Positions 515 to 15,467 of a stretch of 15,467 nt of DNA are shown piece after piece. The notes beneath the pieces are model-generated. The model was given only the letters and a program-made list of their open reading frames with translations. It ran no database searches and was not told the origin of the DNA. Origin of the DNA: a virus (taxonomy: Duplodnaviria; Heunggongvirae; Uroviricota; Caudoviricetes); the IMG/VR virus record IMGVR_UViG_2695420714_000022. One strand, 5' to 3'. The position numbers and the translations under genes are program-made. Position 1 is the first letter of the stretch, and every line of letters starts with the position of its first letter.

Positions 515-763
515 ATGCGTGTTGAGATCTGTATCGCTAAAGAAAAAATCACTAAAATGCCAAACGGTGCTGTGGATGCGTTAAAGGAAGAATTAACCCG
601 ACGCATCAGTAAACGTTATGACGATGTAGAGGTGATCGTAAAAGCCACCAGCAACGATGGCCTTTCTGTTACGCGCACCGCCGATAAAGATTCAGCTAAA
701 ACTTTTGTTCAGGAGACTCTGAAAGATACCTGGAAGTCTGCTGACGAGTGGTTTTTTCACTAA
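515..763 (+). CDS. DinI-family DNA-damage-inducible protein (RecA modulator)
   Basis: 82 aa. MRVEICIAK...GAVDAL..ELTRRI...LSV...[15 protein letters not shown] is colinear with E. coli DinI as I remember it (MRIEV.IAK..GAIDAL..ELSRRI..LSV..QETWESADDWF). Strong AGGAGG RBS and a LexA box upstream. Confidence 0.85.
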
Positions 764-1079: not shown

Positions 1080-1625
1080 ATGAATATTAGTGAACTTAAA
1101 AAGTGTATACACTATGAAGTAATAGGTTGTAAACGCCCTTTCTCCTGGCGAAAAGCAATTGTTCGCGCAATAAAACACAGAAGATCACGTTATTTATTTT
1201 GGTGGCGCATAGCAAAATATCTTTTTGATAAAGGCGGATACCGGCGAAAGATTGCAGGAAAAATAGAACGCTTCATTCTTGACAAATACAATGTAACCGT
1301 TCCCTTAACTGTAAATATTGGTAAAGGGTTCGACATATCTTATCTCAATGGCGTTGTTATCGGTCACAAAGTTACAATAGGTGAAAATTGTTCAATTAAG
1401 CCTGGGGTAACTATTGGACTTCGCGGTGAATTTAATGATATGGATATTGTCATAGGAAATAATGTAACCATTGGCTGTAACGCCACCATCCTTGGTGGCA
1501 AAGTGCATATAGGGAATAATGTAAAAATAGGAGCTCATGCATTGGTACTGCATGACATTCCTGATGACTCCACATTCATTACCAAATTTCACTCTGAAAT
1601 TATTTATAATTCATCTCACACATAA
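1080..1625 (+). CDS. Hexapeptide-repeat (left-handed beta-helix) acyltransferase; polysaccharide O-acetyltransferase-like
   Basis: 181 aa. Basic N-terminal segment with a WW motif (RRSRYLFWWRIAKYLF), followed by tandem hexapeptide repeats (VVIGHKVTIGENCSIKPGVTIG ... IVIGNNVTIGCNATILGGKVHIGNNVKIGAHALV). Architecture resembles WcaF/NodL/maltose-type acetyltransferases. The gene is AT-rich by eye compared with the flanking phage genes and has no obvious SD. Confidence 0.75.
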   Translation: MNISELKKCIHYEVIGCKRPFSWRKAIVRAIKHRRSRYLFWWRIAKYLFDKGGYRRKIAGKIERFILDKYNVTVPLTVNIGKGFDISYLNGVVIGHKVTIGENCSIKPGVTIGLRGEFNDMDIVIGNNVTIGCNATILGGKVHIGNNVKIGAHALVLHDIPDDSTFITKFHSEIIYNSSHT

Positions 1626-2216: not shown

Positions 2217-3107
2217 CTACTTAATATCAGAGACAGAATATTGTTTATTGAGCGTATGGGTGGGAGCACCAATAACGATGCTACTTCCGTGGCTATGTGC
2301 GCCAGAGGTGAGATTGCCTACGGGATTTTCTGGATTAAACCGGTGTGTATGCGAATCAGGGCGAGAGCGATTATTAGTCAGCACGTCATCAGCCTGATGC
2401 ACATGGCTAATACAGAACTGCCCGGAACGTGAGCAATACGTCCGATAATCGCCGCATCCAATATATTTAGTATCCGCATAACGGCAAACAGAATTACCCG
2501 GACAGTATGCATATGTGCCAAATACTGCCGACTGGCGGGATTGTGCGTATTCCCAGTTAATTGATTCTGTTTTTTTATTAAAGTTATCCCATGCCTGCTT
2601 CATCTGCCGGGCAACACTTTCAAACGGCACCTGACCACATCCGGCTCCCATTGCAGGGAATACCACAGTTTTTATTTTCCTGTCTGTCGTTGCGTGTTTA
2701 TTGTGCTGAAAGATGGCAAGCAGAGCGGCCCAGGTTGCGTTATATACAGCGTCTGTTCCGTCAATTGTCAGCGGAACACGCATTGTTGGCGCATGTACCA
2801 GCCAGGGGTGATGATTATGCCCCGTTTCAATTACAAATGCAGAACCTACAGGCTGTTCGCCTAAATATTCACGAAGAATATGATTCTGAACGCGGGACTG
2901 TAACTGAGTACCGAAGAATGCGGTAATGGCGGCATCAACGCCGCCATCCATCAGGCCGAAACTATTTGCCGCACTTACCATGCAGTCAAATTCTCTGATT
3001 GTTTCAAATGGCTTTCCGACAATATTCACATTATCTGCGTTTGCAAATACCCGCTTAAATGCTTCCGCCATTTCTGTTACTGGTGCAGAAAGAATGAGCG
3101 TAATCAT
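2217..3107 (-). CDS. Macro-domain (ADP-ribose binding/hydrolase-like) protein with Cys/His-rich C-terminal tail, inserted between stf and tfa
   Basis: 296 aa. Start ATG overlaps the stf stop (ATGA) and is preceded by GAGG; stop TAG at 2217-2219 lies 9 bp upstream of the tfa ATG. The N-terminal ~200 aa carry the MacroD-type signature N-x6-GG-V-D ([17 protein letters not shown]) and a second Gly-rich loop ([14 protein letters not shown]). The C-terminal ~100 aa have five Cys and HxH motifs (SHTH, AHSH). Confidence 0.75.
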
Positions 3108-6079
3108 GCAAGCCTCACAATATAGTTAAATGCGATGTTTTTGACGGTGTTTTCCGCGTTACCAGCAGCGTTAACGGTGATGGTGTGTCCATGTGAACCA
3201 ATCGCAACAGAGTGCGTATGAGCGCCAATACCAACTGTATGTGCATGCGCCCCTGCACTTGCAGCAGTGCCTGATACTGAGTGGGTGTGTGCACCAGAAG
3301 AAGGCACTGTTCCATTCCCCACGATCGTGCCACTTGATGAACCATCAAGCCAGTCGAAATTCATACCGCCACTGTTTGGTCTCCTTAATGGAACGGTATG
3401 AGTATGTGCGCCAGCACTATTTGCAGTACCAGATACATTGTGGGTATGTGCACCAGTGTTATTCGTGGATTTAGTGCCGTAATCAAAAGATGATGTGGTT
3501 TTCGTCCCCAAATCCGTACTGGATGCGCTGGCGCTGTGGGTGTGCGATTTAATGCCGTCCTGTTCCTGAGACAATACGGCCCGGCCACTGGCGGGTTTGC
3601 CCTTGATTGTCCAGCCGCGCATATCTGGAATAACACCTGAAGGATAGGCAATAGCCAGTTTCGGATATGCTGCCTTATCAAACGTCTGCCCCTGCATGAT
3701 TGCATAACCTGCAGGTGGTGTATCTGATGGCCACGGCAGCGGAACACCTGGCGGAAACGCTTCAATATTTGCCGAGCCGTCAAATTTTACGCCGTTAATT
3801 GTCCTTGCAGTTTGCAATTTGGTTGCTGTGCTTGCATTACCCGATAAAGATCCAGTGATACCACCACTCGCGTTTAATTTAGTTGCAATTGTAACATTGC
3901 CAGTATGGTTACTAATTATAAACGGCCTTAAGCTATTGTGCGTACCAAGACTGTTACCCGAATCTGTCAACATAAAATATGTGTTTGATCCATCATTTCG
4001 GATAAAGAATCCATAGTTGCCATAGGCAATACGCAGACCATTTGCTGACCTTGAAATAACCTCACCAGCAGCAGTTAAACCACCTGAAAGAGTCCCTCCA
4101 GTTAATGCCAATGCCCCAATATTTGAAGGGGTCAATGTGATATTTGCACTACCATCAAATGACACACCGTTAATCGTTCTGGCTGCCTGAAGTTTCGTGG
4201 CGGTCGCAGCATTACCTGTAGTGTTTTGATTACCGGTAGCGTTGACTCCAGGCAAGTTGATATCTGCCGATCCATCAAATGCCACGCCCCCAATCTTACG
4301 TGCTGTCTTGATCTTGGTCGCAGTATCTGCGTTTCCGGTCAAATTACCAGTAACACTACCACCAACTTTTAGTCCATTACCGATGGACACCAACCCTGAT
4401 CTTAAGTTTATAGAGAATGGTCTTAATGAACCGATGTCTCCATTTTCCCCCTCCCCTTCATTAGTCGGAATAAGATGAAGATGATCTTCGGAACGCCTAA
4501 AAATAAGGCCAAAGGCTTGGTTGAATATTCGAAGAGCATTTATCGTGCTGATTTTTAACTGCCCTCCCATTGTGTCGCCAGTTTTTTGAACTGAACTATC
4601 TTTAACAGTTTTAACTGCCTTTGGCGTTGCCGCCAGCTTTTCACTGGTGCTGTTTGTTGCACTGCTGAGCTGTACTATCCCCTTTTTCGTCGTGCTCGCA
4701 TCCTCCAGCGCCACGGCGGATGCAATATCCTCTGCCCGTTTTGCTGCTGTCTCGGCGCGCGTTGCCGCGGATTCAGCAGCAACTTTGCTCTGAGATGCAG
4801 CCGTCGCACTGCCTGCTGCCTCTGATGCTTTCGTTGTTGCTGTCGTGGCACTACCTTTCGCTGCTGACGCTTGTCTGGTCGCCTCATCTTTTGAAGCAGA
4901 CGCAGATGATGCCGATGACGCCGCTGAACTGGCTGACGATGCGGCTGCCGCCTTAGAGGAAGCAGCATTGTCTGCTGAAGTCTTTGCATTTGTTTCAGAG
5001 GTTTTTGCTGCAGAAGCAGACCTCGCTGCTGCAGTGGCTTGCTCAGTGGCTTTGCCAGCCTTCGTTGTGGCTGTTGAAGCGGATGATGCGGCGCTTTCTG
5101 CCGATTTTCCGGCGGCGGTGGCACTGGCTGAGGCCTGCCCGGCACTTGTTGACGCGGCACTGGCAGATAATGCAGCCGCTGTTTTTGAACCTGCCGCAGC
5201 TGAGGCGCTCTGTCCCGCTGCTGTTTCAGAAGACTTAGCGTTCGTCTCGGACGTTTTTGCCGCCTTCGCGGAATTTCCTGCCGCCGTTGCCGAGGAAGCT
5301 GCACTACTGGCACTTGATGATGCATTCGTTTCTGAAGATTTCGCTGCCTCTTTTGAGGCCGCCGCACCCCGTGCCGAGGTGGCAGCTTCTGACGCCTTCG
5401 TGGTCGCTGTGGATGCAGAAGTGGCTGCCGATTTTTGTGATGCTGCGGCATTCGTTTCTGACGTTTTCGCGGCACTGGCGCTGGTAGCTGCCGCGCTTTT
5501 TGATGACTCTGCAGCAGCAGCACTTTTTGCTGCTTCACGGGCCTTTGTCGATGCCGTTCCTGCGCTGGAAGACGCTGACTGAGCCGACGACGCGGCCTGT
5601 CCGGCTGACGTGCTGGCGGCACGTGCTGAGGCTGCAGCATCGGTTGCATGAGTTGCCGCCTCGCTGGCTGATGCACTGGCATCGCTGGCTGATTTTTTCG
5701 CGGCTGCCGTATTCTGTGCAACCGCGGAGGCGTTACGTGACACCTCTTCCACCATCTGCTCAAAGCGGCGCAGTGCCTCCGGTCGGACATCATCCTCCGT
5801 CATGGCACCGAGAAAATCATTCAGCGTACCTGGTCTGGAACCTTCATAGACGGTAATGGTCCCGGCATGTGAAGGCGGAAAACCTTCAACCAGCAGGGTG
5901 ACGCTGTACTGGCCATGCTCAACATCCATGCTGTAACGTCCGGCTTCATCCGGATTTTCAGAGGCCACCGTGTTCACCACCACCGTGCTGCTGGTTCGTC
6001 TGGCCTTCAGCACAATGGTGCAGTTCTGTACTGGTTTTCCTGTGCCATCTTTAAGCACGCCAGAAATTTTTACTGTCAT
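3104..6079 (-). CDS. stf: Side tail fibre protein (Stf), mosaic
   Basis: 991 aa. N-terminus [22 protein letters not shown]... and C-terminus ...[40 protein letters not shown] match lambda Stf from memory. Contains a long Ala/Ser-rich low-complexity segment and a central module with three ~30-aa tail-fibre repeats. Confidence 0.9.
3779..4345 (-). repeat. Three in-frame coding repeats (~90 bp each) inside stf
   Basis: Protein repeats [29 protein letters not shown] / [29 protein letters not shown] / [29 protein letters not shown]; the corresponding DNA repeats are visible near 4255-4345, 4138-4216 and 3779-3850. Confidence 0.7.
4760..5720 (-). repeat. Ala/Ser/Thr-rich low-complexity coding region of stf (approximate bounds)
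   Basis: Roughly 320 aa dominated by A, S, T and K with recurring AAKTSETNA / SASSAASSA units. The GC-rich repetitive DNA generates long spurious ORFs in other frames on both strands. Confidence 0.8.
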
Positions 6080-6230: not shown

Positions 6231-6830
6231 TCAGAAACGGTATCCGATACCAACAATAAATGCATCCGTTCGCCAGTCGCCACTACCGGAACCTTCATAA
6301 GCAAGGTCAATGGCCACGGATTCTGTCGGGTTAAACTGCACGCCAGCCCCCCACGCCAGAGACGTGTTGCTGTGGCGACCGTCATCACTTCCGGTCAGCA
6401 CGTCGTGCGTTTTCCCCTTGTTGTCAGTTACGCGGAGATAATCCCCGGAGAAAGTCGACACACGGCTGTAAGCCATACCCGCCATCACATACGCGCTGAA
6501 CCATTCATTCACGCGCACAGACGGCCCCGCCATCACGCTGAACCAGCGGTTACGCACGGAATCTTCATGCCAGCGGGTATCGCTGTAGTGCGTTTTTTGC
6601 TCATCCTCAGCATTGGCATAACTGAAGGACGTAATCAGCCCCAGCGCGTCCGTAAACTCATAACGGTATTTCACGTTAATCCCGTTCAGATTATCGCTGC
6701 CGGGAGCGTTCGTACGGGCATGAAGATACCCCGCGCTCAGTGTGGACTGATATTCAGACGCCCATGCAGGCGCACCGGATACGGACAGACAGATGGCTGC
6801 GGACAAAATGGCTGCACAAACTTTACGCAT
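6231..6830 (-). CDS. lom: Ail/Lom-family outer membrane beta-barrel protein
   Basis: 199 aa. Signal peptide MRKVCAAILSAAICLSVSGAPAWA and C-terminal ...GIGYRF; near-identical to lambda Lom from memory. GAGG RBS 7 nt upstream. Confidence 0.9.
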   Translation of the reverse strand: MRKVCAAILSAAICLSVSGAPAWASEYQSTLSAGYLHARTNAPGSDNLNGINVKYRYEFTDALGLITSFSYANAEDEQKTHYSDTRWHEDSVRNRWFSVMAGPSVRVNEWFSAYVMAGMAYSRVSTFSGDYLRVTDNKGKTHDVLTGSDDGRHSNTSLAWGAGVQFNPTESVAIDLAYEGSGSGDWRTDAFIVGIGYRF

Positions 6831-6897: not shown

Positions 6898-9800
6898 TCA
6901 GCTGATACTGATGCCTGCGGTGGCTTTCTTCATCACCACAACCAGCAAATCGCTGATACATGCTGTGGGATACCAGTTATTCACCAGCCATGCTGACACC
7001 GAAAACTCCAGCGTCATGTGACCGTGACCGGCAGGCATATCAATAACACCACTGTAAATCAGCGTATTATCCAGCGCGGTACGGTTATAAATTTCAGCAC
7101 CGTTTTTCCGCACTATCAGACGGCATGAGGAGTAAATATCAGTATGCTCTTTCTCATGTTTAGCGCCGCTGAATGCCACCGCCGGAATAACAATCTGCCG
7201 GTCAAACGGCTGATCGTCATAAACCCTGACGGTAATGGTCCCTGATGGCCACCGCTCCGGTGCACGGGAGTCCCGGGGGAAAGCTTTGCCCACTGTTTTA
7301 ACGAGATCGCCTTCAATCTGGTTGGCGGACAATTTTCCCAGAACCCGACAGTTCTCGTTAATCGTGACGTTGTTGAGCGTCCCGGAGTTCGCATTCACGT
7401 TACCGCTGATATCGGCATTTTTCGCCGTCAGCCGCCCGTCCGGTGTCAGGGAAAATGCCGGAGGATTACCGCCGCTGGTAATGGTCGGAGCTGTCAGGCG
7501 TTTCAGGAACACGTCGTTCATGAATATCTGATCGCCCTGACCAACAAACATCGGCTTTGTGTTGCCATTCGCAGGATTAATCATCGCAATCCGGTCAGCA
7601 GCCAGAAGCACCTGACTCTGCATACCTGCTGGCGTATTCCCAATACCGGCTCCGATACCCGCAATATAAAGGCGTCCGTCCTTCATCTGCTGCAGTTTCA
7701 CGGCCCACATGCTGTTCAGGTTATTATTTGTATCAACCTGAACTTTCTGTATCTGCTGGATTGCCGCACTCTGGTCTTCCAGTTTTTTATTGACGGTCTG
7801 CGTGATTTCATTGCTGACATTCGTAATGGACGTCCTGATTTCAGCCAGGTCCGGCGCAAGCTGACCGTTATCAATCTGCGTCCACAACTCCTGGGCCAGA
7901 TGTGTTTTCCCGATTTCTCCTTTGAAAAAATCCAGGTAACCTTCCGCATCATCGCTCGCCCGACCGACAGCCTCCACGAATGCCGATTTGCCAACGGTGT
8001 TCACACTGCGAACGTAAAAATAATAATCATGGCCCGGTTTGATATTGATACTGGCGGCTATCCAGTACAGCGCCGTACCAAGATAGCGGGCTGTGGTTTC
8101 AACCTGCCTGATATCGGTAATCCGCTTTTCCGAGAACCAGAACTCAAACTGTACCGTCGGGTCATAAACAGCAAGATGCGGCGTGGCGGTTATCTGAAAA
8201 TAGCCCGGCGTCAGCTCAATCCTCGACGGTGCTGCCGGTGCGGCAATCCGGAACGATACCGACGCCGGATCGCCCTGCTGCCCCCGGGCATTTACCGCCC
8301 GGACTGTCAGCCTGTAGTTCCCCAGCGCCAGTTGCGTGAAGCGGTATGTGGTTTCCGTCGTCCGGGCCGTGCTGACCAGTCGCTCACTGCCGTCGTCCGC
8401 TGTTACGGTCAGACGGAGCAGGAAGCTCACGCCCTTCACCACCTTCGGTGTGTCCCATCGCGCCAGCACCTGATATTCCCCGCTGTCTGCAGTGACTTCG
8501 GCGGTCAGGTGCTGCACTGCTGGCGGCGTGACACCATTCACCGTGCCGCTCTGGTCACCGTCAAAGTGCGCCCCGTTATCCACGATGGCTTCTTTCTCCG
8601 GTACATGCTGCACGGCGGTGATGGCATACGTGCCGTCATCGTTCTCACGGATACTCACGCAGCGGAACAGGCGCTGGCGCAGCGTCGGCAGCTTCAGCCC
8701 CCACACGCTGTATTCTGCAACGCCGTCAGGAACACGGCTCACTTTCACCTTCACGCCGTCGGTGACGGACTGGACCTCCACGCTGACCGGATTACCCTGA
8801 CCGTCAACCAGGCTTATCAGCGTGGTACCGGAGGATGGCAGCGTGATTTCACGGTCGAGCGTCAGCGTCCGGGTCTGGCTGTTCACCGCCAGCACGCGCC
8901 CGCCGGTGCTGATACCCGCATAGTCATCATCGCAGATTTCAATGACATCCCCCGGTACATGGCGAAGCCCTTCCGCACCCACGCTGAAGTCCACGGTCTG
9001 CGTTTCCAGCAGTTCCGTTTTAATCAGCCACAGCCCGGCGCGGTGCGCCTGCCCCCGGCTGGTACAGCCAAAGGCATCCATCTTCGTGACGTTACGACCG
9101 TAACGGGCAATGGCCTGCGTATCTTCAACAAGCTCTGTCGCCGTCTCCCAGCCGTTATCCGGGTCAATCCAGTTCACCTCAACGGCATTATGACGGTCCT
9201 TCAGGGCACTGAAGCTGTAGCGGAACGGCGCGCCATCATCCGGCATCACCACATTACTGCGGTTATAGGTCCACACCTTATCCGACGGTCGGTCCTGCAC
9301 GAACGTCAGCGTCTGCCCGTTCCATACCGGCATACAGCGCATCGCCGAGCAGAAATCACTGAGAACATCCCACGCCTTGCGCTGTGTGGTCAGGTAGGCA
9401 TTACAGGTGATGCGCGGCTCCGTGCCACCAAAGCCATCCGGCACCGACTGGTCGCAATTCTGGCCGATGACATACAGCGCCCATTTGTCCACATCCGCCG
9501 CACCGAGACGCTTCCCCATGCCGTAGCGCGGATGGGTCAGCATATCCCACAGACACCAGGCCATGTTGTTGCTGTATGCTGGCTTAAACGTTCCGTCCCA
9601 GATACCGCTGTATTGCCGCGTCTGCGGGTTATAGTTCGACGGCACCTGCAGAATGCGCCCGCGAAGATGATAATTACGGCTCACCTGCTGGCTGCCGAAC
9701 TGTTCCGAGTCCACCTGCACGCCGACCAGTGCCGTGTTCGGGTAGCCCTGTTTCACATCGATGATTTCGGTGTATGACGACCAGAGCGTTTTGTTCTGCA

Positions 9801-10377
9801 GCTGGTCTGTGGTGCTGTCCGGCGTCATTCTGCGCATCCGGATATTAAACGGGCGCGGCGGCAGGTTATCCACCACCACCGAGGCCAGATACTGCGAGGT
9901 GGTTTTGCCCTTAATGGTGATGTCTTTTTCCGTCACCCAGCCACCGTTACGCTGGATCTGAACCAGCAGGCGGACTTCCGACGGATTCCTGTCCCCCTTT
10001 GAGGTGGTTTCCACCAGTGCCTGCACACCGAAGGTAAAGCGCAGACGGTCGATGTTTGCCGACGTGATGGTCCGGGTGATCGGCGTGTCATATTTCACTT
10101 CCGTACCCAGCACCGTCTCGGAGCCGGAGGATTCAAATCCCTCCGGCGGTGTCTGCTCCTGCTCACCTGCCCGGAACACCACCGTGACACCGGATATATT
10201 GGTATTCCCCTCACTGTCCAGCACCGGCGTACTGTTCAGCAGCACGCTTTTTAATCCGTCCACCGGACCTTCAACCGGCCCTTCGCTGATGGCATCGATC
10301 ACACTCAGCAGCTGCGTGGACTTCAGGTTGTCCCTCGCTTCGCGCGGGGTATGCCCCTTACTGCTTCCTTTACCCAT
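6898..10377 (-). CDS. J: Tail tip / host specificity protein J (central tail fibre)
   Basis: 1159 aa, lambda J-like throughout, with C-terminus ...[45 protein letters not shown] resembling the LamB-binding end of lambda J from memory. GAGGA RBS immediately upstream. Confidence 0.95.
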
Positions 10378-10400
10378 TCCTCACACTCCATAAACAACAA

Positions 10401-10419
10401 AGCCGCCCAAAAGGCGGCT
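10401..10419 (-). terminator. Candidate terminator downstream of the lipoprotein moron
   Basis: Stem AGCCGCC / GGCGGCT with 5-nt loop; on the minus strand followed by TTGTTGTTTAT. Confidence 0.45.
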
Positions 10420-10443
10420 CATGAGTTACGACAGGATTAACTA

Positions 10444-10782
10444 TTATTTACATGCATTAACACTATCAGCAAAAATTTTTGGCGTTAATGCTGGTACACG
10501 TTCATAAAGAGTAAAACTACTGCCATTTCCTGCTTTTTTGATATCAAGCACAACATCATATCCCCCCATAGCCTGTGGAACTAAAAGGCTTACCCCATTC
10601 TCAATAGGAAGGGATGTTATAGGTGTTCCATTACCAGCCCATTGTCTGGATATGCAGCCTGACAATTCATCAATATTTTTTAATGAATTACCTTCCATTA
10701 CAGGTTTTCCGGATTTTACGTAATCCAAAGATTTACATCCTGTTAAGGCAATAATCGTGCAGAATAAAATCGTTTTGTTCAT
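10444..10782 (-). CDS. Small secreted lipoprotein; moron inserted between I and J
   Basis: The second Met of the ORF gives MNKTILFCTIIALTGC, a textbook signal peptide with lipobox L-T-G-C. Mature protein is about 95 aa with two more Cys. The ~480-bp I-J gap is AT-rich by eye, unlike the flanking tail genes; RBS is weak. Confidence 0.6.
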   Translation of the reverse strand: MNKTILFCTIIALTGCKSLDYVKSGKPVMEGNSLKNIDELSGCISRQWAGNGTPITSLPIENGVSLLVPQAMGGYDVVLDIKKAGNGSSFTLYERVPALTPKIFADSVNACK

Positions 10783-10855
10783 ATAGCTAACCAATAGAAT
10801 AATTATCAGTGTTCGATATAAATATTAAATTAGTTAGAACATGAGTAAAATAATA

Positions 10856-11497
10856 TTACCGCCCAATTACCACAACCTGACCACCATCCCCTTCATCTGC
10901 CGTGCTAATCTCCTGAGATGCCACACGTGACCCCACGCGCATTTCACCGTACAGAACAGGCAGGACATTGCCCTGGGCAACCATGTTATCCAGTGAGGAG
11001 AAATAGGTGTTCTGTTTGCCGTTATCCGTTGTCTGTGTACGGGGAGTTCTGGCTTTCGGTGCCAGCATCTGCGCCACACCACCAAGCGTCATCGCCGCAC
11101 CCATTGAAAAGAGAATGTCACTGAAAGCGATACTGATCCCCGGCATCCAGATTGCCGTAGCAATCAACGCCGCACCCAGCACCGCCTGAAACACACCGCC
11201 ACTTTTTGCTCCCGCAAGACGCGGCACGATGTGGATCACGGCACCATTTGCCAGCGGCTCATTAAGACGGGATGATAATTCGGTTTCTCCTGCATCCCGC
11301 CCGGCAATCCGTACCTGATACCAGCCATCGCTCAGTTTCTGACGAAACGCCGGGAGCTGTGTGGCCAGTGCCCGGATGGCTTCAGCCCCCGTTTTCACAC
11401 GAAGGTCGATGCGGCGGCCAAATCGTTGCAAATCCCCGTAAAGGCAGATGCGTGCCATTCCCGGTGACGCCAGAGGGAGTGTGTGCGTCGCTGCCAT
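10856..11497 (-). CDS. I: Tail assembly protein I
   Basis: 213 aa. MAATHTLPLASPGMARICLYGDLQRFGRRIDLRVKTGAEAIRALATQLPAF... and C-terminus ...ISTADEGDGGQVVVIGR are lambda I-like from memory. Overlaps the 3' end of K. Confidence 0.85.
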   Translation of the reverse strand: MAATHTLPLASPGMARICLYGDLQRFGRRIDLRVKTGAEAIRALATQLPAFRQKLSDGWYQVRIAGRDAGETELSSRLNEPLANGAVIHIVPRLAGAKSGGVFQAVLGAALIATAIWMPGISIAFSDILFSMGAAMTLGGVAQMLAPKARTPRTQTTDNGKQNTYFSSLDNMVAQGNVLPVLYGEMRVGSRVASQEISTADEGDGGQVVVIGR

Positions 11498-12138
11498 TTG
11501 TCGGTATACCTCTCTCGTTTACTCAGTTGTTCAGGAATATGGTGCAGCAGCTCACCGTCGCCGCAGTAAATGGCGGCGTGATTCGGCACCGATGAACCAA
11601 AACAGCACAGCAGCACATCGCCCGGCTGCGCCTCTGTCAGTGCGACACGGTAAAAACCAGTAGCCTCCATATTGTCAAGATAGAGATTCTGACCGTGACG
11701 CCACCAGTCATCCCCGCGATGAAAATCCGGCATCTCAATCCCCGCCAGATGGTAAGCATCCCGGAACAGTGTGTAACAGTCCGTCACCCCGTACTCAAAG
11801 CGCCGCCCGGTGAGATGCGGCACACAGCGGAACTTGTGAATCGCCCCCCGGCAGACCAGCCACCACGGCAAATCGCTCTGCACCTGCAGCCGCCGGTCAG
11901 CCTCACTCAGCCAGGGCAGACCACCGGGGTGGCTGTGGACCAGCGCCACAATCTCACCCTGCATCTCTGCCTGCAGCCAGTCCTCCGGAGCCATCCGGAA
12001 ATACGCCTCCGGCTCACCGGAGATATTCACGCAGGGGAAATATCTTTCCCCCTCCGGTGTTCTCACCACGAAGCCGCACGACTCCGCTGGCGCACATCGC
12101 CGGGCGTGCGCCAGAATCGCTGATTCTGTCTCTGTCAT
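11395..12138 (-). CDS. K: Tail assembly protein K (JAB/MPN metalloprotease plus NlpC/P60-like domain)
   Basis: Starts at MTETESAILAHARRCAPAESCGF..., with the ATG 5 bp after the L stop. JAMM motif HSHPGGLPWLSEAD (H-x-H-x7-S-x2-D). The 3' end overlaps I by about 100 bp, so the exact stop used is uncertain. Confidence 0.85.
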   Translation of the reverse strand: MTETESAILAHARRCAPAESCGFVVRTPEGERYFPCVNISGEPEAYFRMAPEDWLQAEMQGEIVALVHSHPGGLPWLSEADRRLQVQSDLPWWLVCRGAIHKFRCVPHLTGRRFEYGVTDCYTLFRDAYHLAGIEMPDFHRGDDWWRHGQNLYLDNMEATGFYRVALTEAQPGDVLLCCFGSSVPNHAAIYCGDGELLHHIPEQLSKRERYTDKWQRRTHSLWRHREWHASAFTGICNDLAAASTFV

Positions 12139-12142
12139 GGGA

Positions 12143-12841
12143 TTACTGCGAAAGTTTGTTAATGGAAAGGAAGCCGCCAAAGTTGCCGACGTTATTGCGA
12201 AACTTACAGCCGCTCAGGCATTTGCTGCATTTATCCTTCGTGATATCGGACGTCGGCTGGTCATATTCATCCGCGACTGCCGGACCGTGATAACCGCACT
12301 CATCACCGCGATAGGTCCAGGTGCAGGTGTTGGCCAGCATGATACGCCCCGGAAAAACAGCGCCATCCGTTTCTGTCGGCGTGGACAGTACAAAGGAGGC
12401 ACTCACCGCGCTCAGTTCGCTGCACTGCTCGATGCGCCAGCGGCTGATCACCTCCTGCTCCGGATCGGCGTCTCTGTTTCCGTTGACGAAGTTCACCGCA
12501 TCCAGAAAACGGGCGTAAACCTTACGCCGGACCACCGTTCCGCCGACCAGACTCTGCATATCTTCCACCATACCGGTGACCATGCCGTACAGGTTAGAGA
12601 CTGCCAGCGTGGGCCGCGTACTGGTGCCTTTGCCATTCAGTTCAAAACCGCTCCCCTGAATGGGATACGCCTGATACTGCCTCCCCTGCCAGGTGACCGG
12701 CTCACCTTTTTCGTTCTGCTCATTACAGAAAAAATAACGTTCTCCACCGACCTCTGTCAGATCGATTTCCCAGAGCACCACGCTGGCCGACTGCTCCGCA
12801 CGGGTGCATTCATTCAGTGTTTCCTGCCGGATATCCTGCAT
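12143..12841 (-). CDS. L: Tail tip protein L
   Basis: 232 aa, same length as lambda L. MQDIRQETLNECTRAEQSASVVLWEIDLTEVGGERYFF... with a C-terminal Cys cluster (C-x-x-C-x-x-x-C). Start ATG overlaps the M stop (ATGA). Confidence 0.9.
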   Translation of the reverse strand: MQDIRQETLNECTRAEQSASVVLWEIDLTEVGGERYFFCNEQNEKGEPVTWQGRQYQAYPIQGSGFELNGKGTSTRPTLAVSNLYGMVTGMVEDMQSLVGGTVVRRKVYARFLDAVNFVNGNRDADPEQEVISRWRIEQCSELSAVSASFVLSTPTETDGAVFPGRIMLANTCTWTYRGDECGYHGPAVADEYDQPTSDITKDKCSKCLSGCKFRNNVGNFGGFLSINKLSQ

Positions 12842-13170
12842 CAGTTCACCACCTGTTTAAACTCTGCGCTGAACCCAACACGCAACATACTGACCTGCGA
12901 CGACCATTTTGCGCAGGTCACCTTTATCTGCCTGTAACCATAAGGCGGCGTCCACAGAAAGGCCTTCCAGCCCCCGTGCTCAGCCAGAAACGACTCCAGC
13001 GCCGTGGCCTCCTCACGGGAGACAGACAGCGTCACGCTGTACGTTTTCAGGTCAGCGTTCAGCCCGGCAGGCGCACGCTGGGAATAGCCATCACCAAAGC
13101 GCACCTCCCTGACGGAAGGAGCCGATGTCACATCCATCCCGGGTTTCACTTTCCAGCGGAAGGTCTTCAT
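12841..13170 (-). CDS. M: Tail tip protein M
   Basis: 109 aa, same length as lambda M. MKTFRWKVKPGMDVTSAPSVREVRFGDGYSQRAPAGLN... Start ATG overlaps the H stop (ATGA). Confidence 0.9.
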   Translation of the reverse strand: MKTFRWKVKPGMDVTSAPSVREVRFGDGYSQRAPAGLNADLKTYSVTLSVSREEATALESFLAEHGGWKAFLWTPPYGYRQIKVTCAKWSSQVSMLRVGFSAEFKQVVN

Positions 13171-15467
13171 CGTCCACCTCCGGAGAACAGTCCACCATCA
13201 CGCATCTGTGTCTGAATTTCATCACGGGCACCCTTGCGGGCCATGTCATACACCGCCTTCAGAGCAGCCGGACCTATCTGCCCGTTCGTGCCGTCGTTGT
13301 TAATCACCACATGGTTATTCTGCTCAAACGTCCCGGACGCCTGCGACCGGCTGTCAGCCAGACTGCCCGGTGTACCGACATAACCACCGGTGGCATAGCC
13401 GCGCATCAGCCGGTAGAGATTCCCCACGCCAATCCGGCTGGTTGCCTCCTTTGTGAAGACAAATTCACCACGGTGAACAATCCCCGCTGGCTCATATTTG
13501 CCGCCGGTTCCCGTAAATCCTCCGGTTGCAAAATGGAATTTCGCCGCAGCGGCCTGAATGGCTGTACCGCCTGACGCGGATGCGCCGCCACCAACAGCCC
13601 CGCCAATGGCGCTGCCGATACTCCCGACAATCCCCACCATTGCCTGCTTAAGCAGAATTTCTGTCATCATGGACAGCACGGAACGGGTGAATCCCCGCCA
13701 GTTCTGTTCGCTGCCGGTCAGCATCGCCGCCATATTCTGTGCAATACCGTCAAAGGTCTGCGTGGCCACACTTTTAACCTGCGAAAAACTGTCCGTCGCA
13801 CTTTCCGCCCACTCTCCCCAGCCGGACTTCATCCCGGCCATCCAGCTTCCACGAAGCTGCTCCTCCGCAGACCAGGTGTTCTTCAGTGCCGATGTGGCCT
13901 TCGCCAGCGCAGCCGGATTATCACCGTACACCTCACGAAGGCGCTGCTCTTCCGACTCCCGCTGCGCCTGACGGTCGGTGAGGCCGCGGGCTTTTGCGCT
14001 GATTGCCGCCTGCTTCGCGCTTTGCTGCTGTTCAAACCGCGCCGCCTGCTGTGCCAGCTCATTCAGCCGCTTCTGGTGTTCAATCTTGTCTCCCAGCTCA
14101 GCCAGCTGGCGTTTGTACTCCAGCGTCTCTTTCTCATGAGCCAGCAGGGATTTTTCCTGCTCAGATAACTGCCGTTTCGTGGCGGCCTCTTTCAGGACCA
14201 CATACTGACTTTCCGCTTCCCATAAATCCCGGCGCTGCTGGCTGATTTTCTCATTCACACCGCTGTGTTTTTCCAGCGTCCTGAGCTCGGTTTCAAGCGC
14301 CAGCAGGGCTGCATGCGCCCGGTCTTCCTGGCGCTCACCGGCAGACACCTTCACACCTGACGGCTTTTTCAGCGTCGATTCATAATCCTTTTTTGCCGAC
14401 GCCATCAGCGTGTTGTAATCCGCCTGCAGGATTTTTCCGTCTTTCAGGGCCTTATTCAGCTCTTTCTGACGGGCGGTATATTTATCCAGCGGCGTCTGCA
14501 GGCGCTCATACGCCTTCTGCGCCTCTCCGGTATACTTCAGCTGTGACGACTCACGCTCAGCCCTGTCCCTTGCCGCCAGTTCACCGGCTTTTTCCATATC
14601 CGACTGCAGCGTGGCCGCTGCCAGACCCAGACGGGCATTTTCCCGGTCATCCCATGCCCCCTGAAGGTTCGCACGAAAAGAGGAGGTCTTTCCCCGGCGC
14701 TGGCTCCGGCTCTGGTACCACTGCCATTTTTTATCCGCCTCATCAAATGCCTTCTGCGCACTGGCGAGCATATCCGCTGAGGATTCCGGACGACCGATAT
14801 CCAGAATGGCATCCCACATCGATTTGAATGCCTTCCCTGTTTTATCCGCCCAGGTCTCCAGTGTTCCCATGTTTTCTTTCAGGCGACGGGTCTGCTCATC
14901 AAAGCCTTTCGTGGCGATATCGTTCGCCGCCTGCAATGCCCCGGCCTCGTCTCCGGAACGCTGCAGCTGTGCAACATACGCAATCTGCTCTGCCGTCACG
15001 TTACGGAACTGGCGCGCCATCGCCATCAGTCCCGACGTCGGGTCAGTGGTCAGCTTCCCGAAGGCTTCAGCGACTTTATCCACCTCCACACCGGATGCAG
15101 ACGCAAAACGCGCGACACTCTGGTTGATGGCATCAAACTGTTCACCACCACGCACACCGGCATTCACCAGGGCTGCCAGTGACTCTCTCGCCTGGTTAAA
15201 CGTCAGCCCTGCTGCCTGCCCGGCTCTTGAGAGCGTCAGCATACGATCGGCAGTCAGTCCGGCCTGATTGCCGGAAAGGACCAGCGTTTTATTAAATTCT
15301 GAAAGCGTGGCGTCGCCCTGGTACCAGGCGTACGCCAGCGCACCTGTCGCCACCGCCAGCGAGGTGACCCCGACCATCGGCAGGGTGATCGCACCGGCAA
15401 GCCCCCTGAACATGGGGATCATCCCGCCGAAGGAGTCCTTCACCTGACCGCCCTGTTGCAGCAGGAT
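13167..15467 (-). CDS. H: Tail tape measure protein H, 5'-truncated by the window edge
   Basis: The frame is open to the last base of the window; the listed start at 15443 is an internal GTG. C-terminus ...NNDGTNGQIGPAALKAVYDMARKGARDEIQTQMRDGGLFSGGGR and the coiled-coil-rich middle are lambda H-like from memory. Confidence 0.9.
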   Translation of the reverse strand: MLLQQGGQVKDSFGGMIPMFRGLAGAITLPMVGVTSLAVATGALAYAWYQGDATLSEFNKTLVLSGNQAGLTADRMLTLSRAGQAAGLTFNQARESLAALVNAGVRGGEQFDAINQSVARFASASGVEVDKVAEAFGKLTTDPTSGLMAMARQFRNVTAEQIAYVAQLQRSGDEAGALQAANDIATKGFDEQTRRLKENMGTLETWADKTGKAFKSMWDAILDIGRPESSADMLASAQKAFDEADKKWQWYQSRSQRRGKTSSFRANLQGAWDDRENARLGLAAATLQSDMEKAGELAARDRAERESSQLKYTGEAQKAYERLQTPLDKYTARQKELNKALKDGKILQADYNTLMASAKKDYESTLKKPSGVKVSAGERQEDRAHAALLALETELRTLEKHSGVNEKISQQRRDLWEAESQYVVLKEAATKRQLSEQEKSLLAHEKETLEYKRQLAELGDKIEHQKRLNELAQQAARFEQQQSAKQAAISAKARGLTDRQAQRESEEQRLREVYGDNPAALAKATSALKNTWSAEEQLRGSWMAGMKSGWGEWAESATDSFSQVKSVATQTFDGIAQNMAAMLTGSEQNWRGFTRSVLSMMTEILLKQAMVGIVGSIGSAIGGAVGGGASASGGTAIQAAAAKFHFATGGFTGTGGKYEPAGIVHRGEFVFTKEATSRIGVGNLYRLMRGYATGGYVGTPGSLADSRSQASGTFEQNNHVVINNDGTNGQIGPAALKAVYDMARKGARDEIQTQMRDGGLFSGGGR

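Follow-up and report, generated by a model that had tools for sequence, protein, structure and literature searches.

The IMG/VR virus record IMGVR_UViG_2695420714_000022 contains a 15,467-nt stretch of DNA (here called the window, meaning the whole stretch that was analysed) that covers the tail region of a lambda-like prophage, the tail genes of which, as assigned by Pfam matches, all lie on the minus strand. Between the tail tip assembly gene I and the host specificity gene J lies an AT-rich insertion encoding a small protein with a lipoprotein signal. This protein belongs to the PHROG 914/phiKO2 gp19 family, is maintained by purifying selection and has relatives residing in the tail modules of other lambda-like phages. 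In its insertion and base composition the gene fits a horizontally acquired moron-type accessory gene. The best explanation for its function is a tentative one, namely that the lipoprotein would exclude phages or protect phage progeny at the level of the envelope, independently of the receptor chosen by J. The coordinates of all features are collected in Table 1.

The I-J intergenic space corresponds exactly to positions 10378-10855 (478 bp) and has a GC content of 0.354, compared to 0.570 for I and 0.568 for J. An original prediction, made from the letters of the window, described an AT-rich insertion of ~480 bp at this location, and this is borne out by 147 phage records that do not carry the insert but match both flanks, in I and in J, with identities of 60-99% (80% or more in 137 of the records). 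The insert-free records are ~410-420 bp shorter; among the records listed, the flank match spans ~1280-1310 bp versus 1701 bp in the window. In the three phages in which the empty-junction spacer was read directly (mEp460, Lambda_ev203 and PhiR49_2), it is 60 nt long; after the I stop codon come 17 nt, a hairpin and the ribosome-binding site of J. Alignment to these junctions delimits an inserted unit, both ends of which are marked by a 7-bp direct repeat, CATGAGT (10420-10426 and 10840-10846). Because a repeat of this length arises in ~5% of shuffles, it is weak evidence of microhomology and at most a hint of an insertion footprint. A megablast search of the insert against 50,697 phage records returned no match. 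The region is extra DNA between genes that are adjacent in relatives, as expected of a moron in the sense of Juhala and Hendrix, and its base composition is unlike that of its neighbours, with a GC content of 0.34-0.36 against 0.57 and a third-codon-position GC content (GC3) of 0.24. All homologous enterobacterial loci likewise exhibit an AT-rich gene (GC 0.36-0.44) relative to the flanks (0.44-0.60). Two plus-strand open reading frames (ORFs) within the insert (10538-10723 and 10623-10754), along with a plus-strand promoter-like site (10447-10476), have no support and were set aside. An Rfam scan of positions 10250-11000 identified only a match to GcvB below threshold, located on the minus strand at 10392-10617 over the 3' part of the lipoprotein ORF. 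At 19.6 bits against a gathering score of 42, and with an E value of 0.059, this match is attributed to chance.

The coding strand of the I-J space features a single ORF of at least 60 aa, the product of which reads MNKTILFCTIIALTGC followed by KSLD...ACK and is named 'hypothetical protein' (WP_001332187.1) by PGAP. The original prediction of a small lipoprotein with an LTGC lipobox agrees with PROSITE rule PS51257, which calls for a charged n-region, a hydrophobic core, a lipobox of the form [LVI][ASTVI][GAS]C and a Cys residue at positions 15-35. The N-terminus (MNK-TILFCTIIA-LTGC-K) provides K3 in the n-region, a hydrophobic core of nine residues and Cys16. By this canonical signal the protein is a predicted lipoprotein, with lipidation and localisation predicted in turn, and the mature part (C16-K112) consists of 97 aa with a mass of 10.3 kDa and a pI of 7.9. 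Lipoproteins of E. coli that lack Asp at position +2 are sorted to the outer membrane by the Lol system, and since the +2 residue of the window protein is Lys rather than Asp, outer-membrane sorting is predicted. The ratio of nonsynonymous to synonymous substitution rates (dN/dS) is 0.05-0.10 for the least saturated pairs of homologues and 0.15-0.31 for pairs of the window gene with a homologue. Of 60 E. coli copies examined, 57 are intact and vary by no more than one or two residues (near-identical alleles hereafter), and the leader upstream of the gene is near-invariant across the 60 copies. The ORF is a real gene that is selectively maintained. An identity as an o-spanin (Rz1-like) was ruled out by composition and by the position among tail genes rather than in a lysis cassette.

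The phrog_914 profile ('unknown function') matches the protein from end to end with an E value of 7.3e-33 (residues 1-112 of the protein, 1-118 of the profile), and hhalign aligns it to phiKO2 gp19 with a probability of 94% over 110 columns. By these matches the window protein is assigned to the PHROG 914/phiKO2 gp19 family. Close homologues at 48-62% identity are found in Klebsiella, Enterobacter, Kluyvera and Jejubacter. When 1.84 billion cluster representatives (50% identity clusters) were searched with the family profile, ~125 clusters matched, nearly all of 105-125 aa, and full-length conservation reaches down to 23% identity. Two matches, P0091 and P0115, are long low-complexity repeat proteins and were discarded as spurious. 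The PS51257 lipobox is present in 127 of 139 full-length family members, and the +2 residue is A, S, T, K, V and so on but never Asp. Exactly two further cysteines are encoded by 121 of these 127 members, one at +27 from the lipid Cys and the other mostly one residue from the C-terminus. The invariant pair, C43 and C111 in the window protein, is most probably joined in a periplasmic disulfide that links the two main helices. Searches of Pfam, NCBIfam, PADLOC and PDB sequences with the protein and the family profile identified nothing beyond the lipid-attachment site. At an E value of 0.01 or lower, no Pfam family was returned for the window protein, and at 1 or lower the 27 family members searched gave LPAM_1 and scattered weak matches in one or two members each. 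A search of IMG/VR with four distant family representatives gave no loci. The family has been noticed before, as phiKO2 gp19 is annotated as 'putative moron gene product; similar to Xanthomonas gene XCC2962', and a published description of the Serratia phage OS31 homologue as an outer-membrane lipoprotein adds that it 'might be an analog of Cor proteins' (PMC7556043).

An AlphaFold2 (AF2) model built from a 12-sequence alignment has a pLDDT of 83.7 and a pTM of 0.76, with the topology beta-alpha-beta4-alpha. Foldseek analysis against the PDB placed Flpp3 first (E value 5e-3, TM-score 0.52), and the best match among viral models was an uncharacterised Pseudomonas phage protein with 25% identity, which is itself probably a member of PHROG 914. 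The likeness to Flpp3 (DUF3568, Francisella) and to the N-terminal domain of BamC is weak and at the level of a common fold only; identities are 6-10%, there is no Pfam or PDB sequence match, and the sequence profile does not place the protein in DUF3568/Flpp3. The modelled fold is a common small alpha+beta helix-grip-like domain, shared with other bacterial lipoproteins, that offers no pointer to function. The homology and structure search that the original prediction had proposed as a check yielded membership in PHROG 914 and an alpha+beta fold, but no link to the characterised exclusion lipoproteins.

Mapping by tblastn with the tail proteins of the window, together with annotation, showed that family members occupy three accessory slots of lambda-like tail modules: between K and I, between I and J, and between the G/T chaperones and the tape-measure gene H. 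The I-J slot is that of E. coli. The K-I slot is used in Kluyvera (L006), in the viral contigs L066, L067, L075 and L076, and in phages Fraca, LMessi and phiKO2 (gp19), as well as by metagenomic members that are only 23-24% identical to the window protein. The G/T-H slot is occupied in L068-L073. In all tail-module contexts seen (~15), the lipoprotein gene is co-oriented with the tail genes, and in Kluyvera it is separated from K by 42 nt. The K-I interval is a multi-gene cargo slot, because in L066 (2300-5900) and L067 (5247-5912) it also holds genes for KilA-N, Bro-N, helix-turn-helix (cI-like) and Arc-like proteins upstream of the lipoprotein gene. A second small ORF, the 89-aa product of which has neither a Pfam match nor a signal peptide, is located directly upstream of the family member in the K-I slot of Fraca and LMessi (L002 8725-8994, from Fraca, and L003 8647-8994).

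The original prediction regarded the arrangement as a classic moron layout, with the insert supplying its own hairpin and T-tract before J. A hairpin with a T-rich tract does follow the gene; however, it does not appear to be the insert's own terminator, because insert-free phages already carry its orthologue. The stem, the T-tract and the downstream TTTATGGAG align with the insert-free lambda-type hairpin AAACCGCC-TCC-GGGCGGTTT at the same place, and the folding energy of the terminator-like hairpin (10400-10420) is -15.4 kcal/mol versus -15.3 kcal/mol for the lambda-type version. The I-J hairpin thus appears to be the orthologue of lambda's own and ancestral to the junction, with the insertion having apparently landed between the I stop codon and the pre-existing hairpin. 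Homologues in the other slots have distinct terminators downstream, a strong terminator following the gene in every slot examined, and in phiKO2 a putative terminator is annotated between I and J as well. Similar units of a hairpin and ribosome-binding site also precede I in Fraca and J in phiKO2, where the hairpin is annotated as a terminator. Junction hairpins (window 10390-10420; the junctions of L077, L078 and L090; L002 9354-9373; L089 7007-7029) may mark or favour sites of cargo insertion. What stands of the moron layout is therefore the extra AT-rich DNA in an accessory slot of the tail operon, while the terminator appears to belong to the junction and a consensus scan of the leader gave no promoter match (see below).

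For the function of the lipoprotein, the explanation that we favour, tentatively, would run as follows. [quoted passage not shown] The precursor would be exported by Sec, lipidated at Cys16 and cleaved by signal peptidase II, and the Lol system would deliver the lipoprotein to the outer membrane on account of its +2 Lys. The alpha+beta domain of 97 aa, closed by the C43-C111 disulfide, would then be placed in the periplasm or at the outer membrane, where it would protect the lysogen, or the progeny at lysis, by hindering infection at the envelope. The step affected would be independent of the receptor used by the phage's own J. One candidate is the periplasmic transit of the tail tip or of the tape-measure protein, and another is an envelope component on which other phages rely.

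Several observations weigh against this explanation. Neither in sequence nor in fold is the protein related to any of the characterised exclusion lipoproteins, PADLOC returned no family at an E value of 1 or lower, and literature searches found no experimental test of any member of the PHROG 914 family. Expression in the lysogen, which is a hallmark of exclusion morons, is unsupported because no promoter was matched and the ribosome-binding site is weak. A scan of the coding strand upstream of the ORF for sigma-70 promoters gave no match of at least 9/12 at a spacing of 16-18 nt, and the same holds for four homologous loci (L068, L006, L076 and L002), though consensus scans of this kind are blind to weak or non-sigma-70 promoters. 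Under relaxed settings, the best sites in the leader at this spacing reach 8/12 (for example TTTACT-N17-AATATT and TTTAAT-N16-GATAAT), as is expected in AT-rich DNA, and a single 9/12 match has an unfavourable spacer of 15 nt. Homologues are preceded by AAGGAG or GGAGGA, but the window copy is without a good Shine-Dalgarno sequence. A literature search found no transcript or proteome data for the gene; the study 'A window into lysogeny' does not include this prophage, and the published proteome of a telomere-phage lysogen does not list such a protein, though that phage may not encode one. Because the gene is co-oriented with the tail genes, it is probably transcribed at least with the late tail operon. 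Three of the 60 E. coli copies are frameshifted or truncated, and the gene is therefore dispensable in some lineages; damaged copies were recorded as L063, L064 and L065 among the IMG/VR E. coli prophages and as P0002 and P0018. Lastly, a few distant members lie outside tail modules, in a chromosomal island, in a contig that does not look like a phage, and in an antirepressor/Arc cluster in the opposite orientation. One of these, 28% identical to the window protein (P0143; metagenome contig L080, 8001-8357), is surrounded by small unannotated genes in an island that also carries RadC, DUF2971 and a transposase and adjoins alaS-csrA, so the family is not strictly confined to phage tails.

An unlikely alternative, though one with several points in its favour, is that the lipoprotein serves the bacterium as a lysogenic-conversion factor in the manner of Bor/Iss or TraT, conferring resistance to serum or complement, tolerance of envelope stress or improved colonisation, with no role between phages. 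The first-listed copies with 100% identity include those of UTI89, S88, APEC O1, IHE3034, NU14 and UM146, which we take to be ExPEC or avian pathogenic E. coli (APEC) strains. Flpp3, which gave the best fold match, has been described as contributing to virulence in Francisella, and the neighbouring lom is a known host-interaction moron (PMC3594210). However, none of the 27 family members exhibits a Lambda_Bor or TraT match in Pfam, no promoter is evident, and the spread of the gene through tail modules of prophages in Klebsiella, Kluyvera, Enterobacter, Serratia and Jejubacter, and in environmental bacteria of high GC content, points to a role centred on the phage rather than on a particular host niche.

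Another reading is a late lytic helper rather than a moron expressed in the lysogen. It would be made along with the tail proteins and act in the periplasm, for example by neutralising the NlpC/P60 domain of K in the way of T4 Spackle or of the periplasmic immunity proteins of type VI secretion system amidases. Co-orientation with the tail genes in ~15 contexts, the lack of a separate detectable promoter and the 42-nt spacing from K in Kluyvera are consistent with this, as is the location of the gene in the K-I interval, after K or after one or two accessory genes, in most lineages including the members with 23-24% identity. A helper of this kind is nonetheless rather improbable. In the window the gene follows I and in another group it precedes H, so adjacency to K is not obligatory; most lambda-type phages do without the gene; one distant member is transcribed opposite to its neighbours; and the present analysis gave no evidence for K acting in the periplasm. 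A related and similarly doubtful proposal is that PHROG 914 constitutes a new and widespread class of tail-module exclusion proteins that are not receptor masks but act in the periplasm on an incoming tail-tip component. Such a protein would inhibit the NlpC/P60-JAB protein K or block insertion of the tape measure, as a Spackle/Ltp-style immunity protein encoded beside its target, and this would account for the gene travelling with K, I and H rather than with the receptor-binding end of J.

Still less probable is the Cor/Llp-type mask, in which the lipoprotein would bind and inactivate the outer-membrane receptor of its own J, excluding phages that use the same receptor and shielding progeny from cell debris. 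It was appealing as the gene encodes a small outer-membrane-type lipoprotein beside the host specificity gene, Cor, Llp and Lpp010 provide precedent, and the same idea has been published for the OS31 homologue (PMC7556043). If the lipoprotein masked the receptor of its own phage, the gene should be linked to the receptor-binding domain of J, and no such linkage was seen. Fifty phage records, including VT1-Sakai and the PPompW prophages, have a J in which the C-terminal 200 aa are at least 95% identical to those of the window, and none of them has the insert. Among IMG/VR E. coli prophages the near-identical lipoprotein alleles occur with at least three classes of J C-termini, at 92-99%, 65-68% and 51-54% identity, and in phage Fraca a family member and cor are present together. 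The position of the gene in most lineages, upstream of I or even before H, puts several kb between it and the receptor-binding end of J, and only the signal peptide aligns with Llp, Cor and Lpp010. These findings weaken a Cor/Llp-type role but leave untouched one that is directed at other phages or at a step independent of the receptor. Of the original prediction, which named a receptor-masking or other envelope-acting factor, the first half is weakened, and a role at the envelope or in exclusion is still the best guess. That the ORF is spurious or decaying in AT-rich junk, as its weak ribosome-binding site, the missing promoter match and the three frameshifted copies of 60 might suggest, is effectively refuted by conservation to 23% identity with invariant cysteines, a dN/dS of 0.05-0.3, the confident AF2 fold and the match to PHROG 914 (E value 7e-33).

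If envelope-level exclusion or progeny protection is the true function, the family would be a widespread addition to the short list of lipoprotein exclusion systems, and one that is independent of the J receptor. Phage therapy directed at lineages of ExPEC would be affected as well, given that the allele is carried by ~6% of complete E. coli genomes (337 of 5426 contain the lipoprotein segment), including UTI89, S88 and APEC O1. Relatives had already been flagged as a putative moron and as a possible analog of Cor; the window gene is a member of the family newly placed at the junction of I and J in a prophage of ExPEC. For now it is a clearly delimited and fairly ordinary accessory gene.

The segment is 100% identical to a prophage located beside a truncated ompW, near trpA, in UTI89, S88, APEC O1, IHE3034, NU14, UM146 and ATCC 11775. 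The window also contains a gene in the minus orientation (2217-3107) encoding a Macro-domain protein of 296 aa (PF01661, E value 8.6e-19) between the side tail fibre and tail-fibre assembly genes. This gene is absent from the UTI89 version of the prophage and may represent cargo related to anti-defence or ADP-ribose. The block of macro, Tfa and acetyltransferase genes is also found in a few E. coli chromosomes and in plasmids of ~95-100 kb. Downstream of the tail fibre module, on the opposite strand, are a hexapeptide-repeat acetyltransferase gene (1080-1625, plus strand; 'serine acetyltransferase' in PGAP) and a DinI-like gene (515-763, plus strand).

Table 1. Features of the I-J insertion and of the surrounding tail module, with positions in the window.
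Feature	Position	Strand	Evidence or remarks
Inserted unit, 420 bp, GC 0.343	10427-10846	minus	Alignment to the empty I-J junctions of mEp460, Lambda_ev203 and PhiR49_2
Lipoprotein gene, 112 codons and stop	10444-10782	minus	Translation, PHROG 914, homologue alignments, AF2 model, dN/dS
Predicted signal peptide, residues 1-15	10738-10782	minus	Translation
Lipobox L13-T14-G15-C16	10735-10746	minus	PROSITE PS51257
Conserved cysteine C43	10654-10656	minus	Family alignment
Conserved cysteine C111	10450-10452	minus	Family alignment
AT-rich leader, 73 nt, I stop codon to lipoprotein ATG	10783-10855	minus	No consensus sigma-70 promoter, weak ribosome-binding site
GC-rich hairpin GAGCCGCC-TTTT-GGGCGGCTT and T-rich tract, just upstream of the J ribosome-binding site	10390-10420	minus	Terminator-like site of 9 pairs
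I, tail tip assembly, upstream neighbour	10856-11497	minus	PF06805 Lambda_tail_I (E value 4.4e-24); 'tail assembly protein' by PGAP in UTI89; stop codon TAA at 10856-10858
J, tip attachment/host specificity, downstream neighbour	6898-10377	minus	Six dedicated J/tail-tip Pfam domains, including the C-terminal receptor-binding PF12421
K	11395-12180	minus	Pfam; carries PF00877 NlpC/P60
L	12143-12841	minus	Pfam
M	12841-13170	minus	Pfam
H	13167-15443	minus	Pfam
lom	6231-6830	minus	Pfam
Side tail fibre	3104-6079	minus	Pfam
Tail-fibre assembly	1636-2214	minus	Pfam

Small lipoproteins encoded in or beside tail genes are known to exclude phages, as with Cor, Llp and the Lpp021 and Lpp010 proteins of the mEpimmI phages; for the latter two, exclusion of phages dependent on LamB or OmpA, lambda among them, has been demonstrated (PMC11893012). 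The window protein falls outside the Cor, Llp and Lpp010 groups, because the family profile, when compared by hhalign with T5 Llp, Fraca Cor and mEp010 Lpp010, aligned over the signal peptide only. Against Fraca Cor the alignment is limited to residues 2-32 (signal peptide and linker) and against Lpp010 to 18 signal-peptide residues at a probability of 41%, which is homology to neither, and T5 Llp exhibits no sequence or fold homology, with no Llp entry among the fold matches listed. The FhuA-inactivating lipoproteins, namely Cor (phi80, N15, HK022, T1 and others) and T5 Llp, resemble the window protein in being small, in having an outer-membrane-type signal and in being encoded near host-specificity genes, and exclusion at the envelope is the analogy with them that is proposed here. 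They differ in a mature part of ~60 aa versus 97 aa, in the location of their genes downstream of J or divergent from it, whereas the window gene is upstream of J, and in fold, as the alpha+beta fold predicted here is unlike Llp. Lpp021 and Lpp010 share with the window protein that they are lipoproteins encoded in the structural gene cluster; however, Lpp010 has 82 aa and its gene follows J on the opposite strand, and tblastn with family members found no match in mEp010.

The superinfection-exclusion moron gp15 of HK97 offers a parallel of position, since the L068-L073 branch of the family lies in the same slot between the G/T chaperones and the tape-measure gene (PMC3594210), but gp15 is a small inner-membrane protein of the YebO family, not a lipoprotein, and has no homology to the window protein. 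Lambda Bor/Iss is similar in being a prophage-encoded outer-membrane lipoprotein of ~100 aa; bor is located in the lysis region rather than among the tail genes, and the window protein has no match to PF06291. Among the 27 family members, no Pfam model was matched for Bor/Iss (PF06291), for TraT or for the known lysozyme-inhibitor lipoproteins. The Tai and Tab tail-assembly defences were considered as well and are cytoplasmic and unrelated. The closest parallels are phiKO2 gp19, OS31 p54, Fraca VUF53278 and LMessi CDS0039, which share with the window protein a length of ~112 aa, the lipobox, the two cysteines, a lambda-like tail module and a downstream terminator; they are 26-31% identical to it and are encoded in the K-I slot, whereas the window gene occupies the I-J slot.

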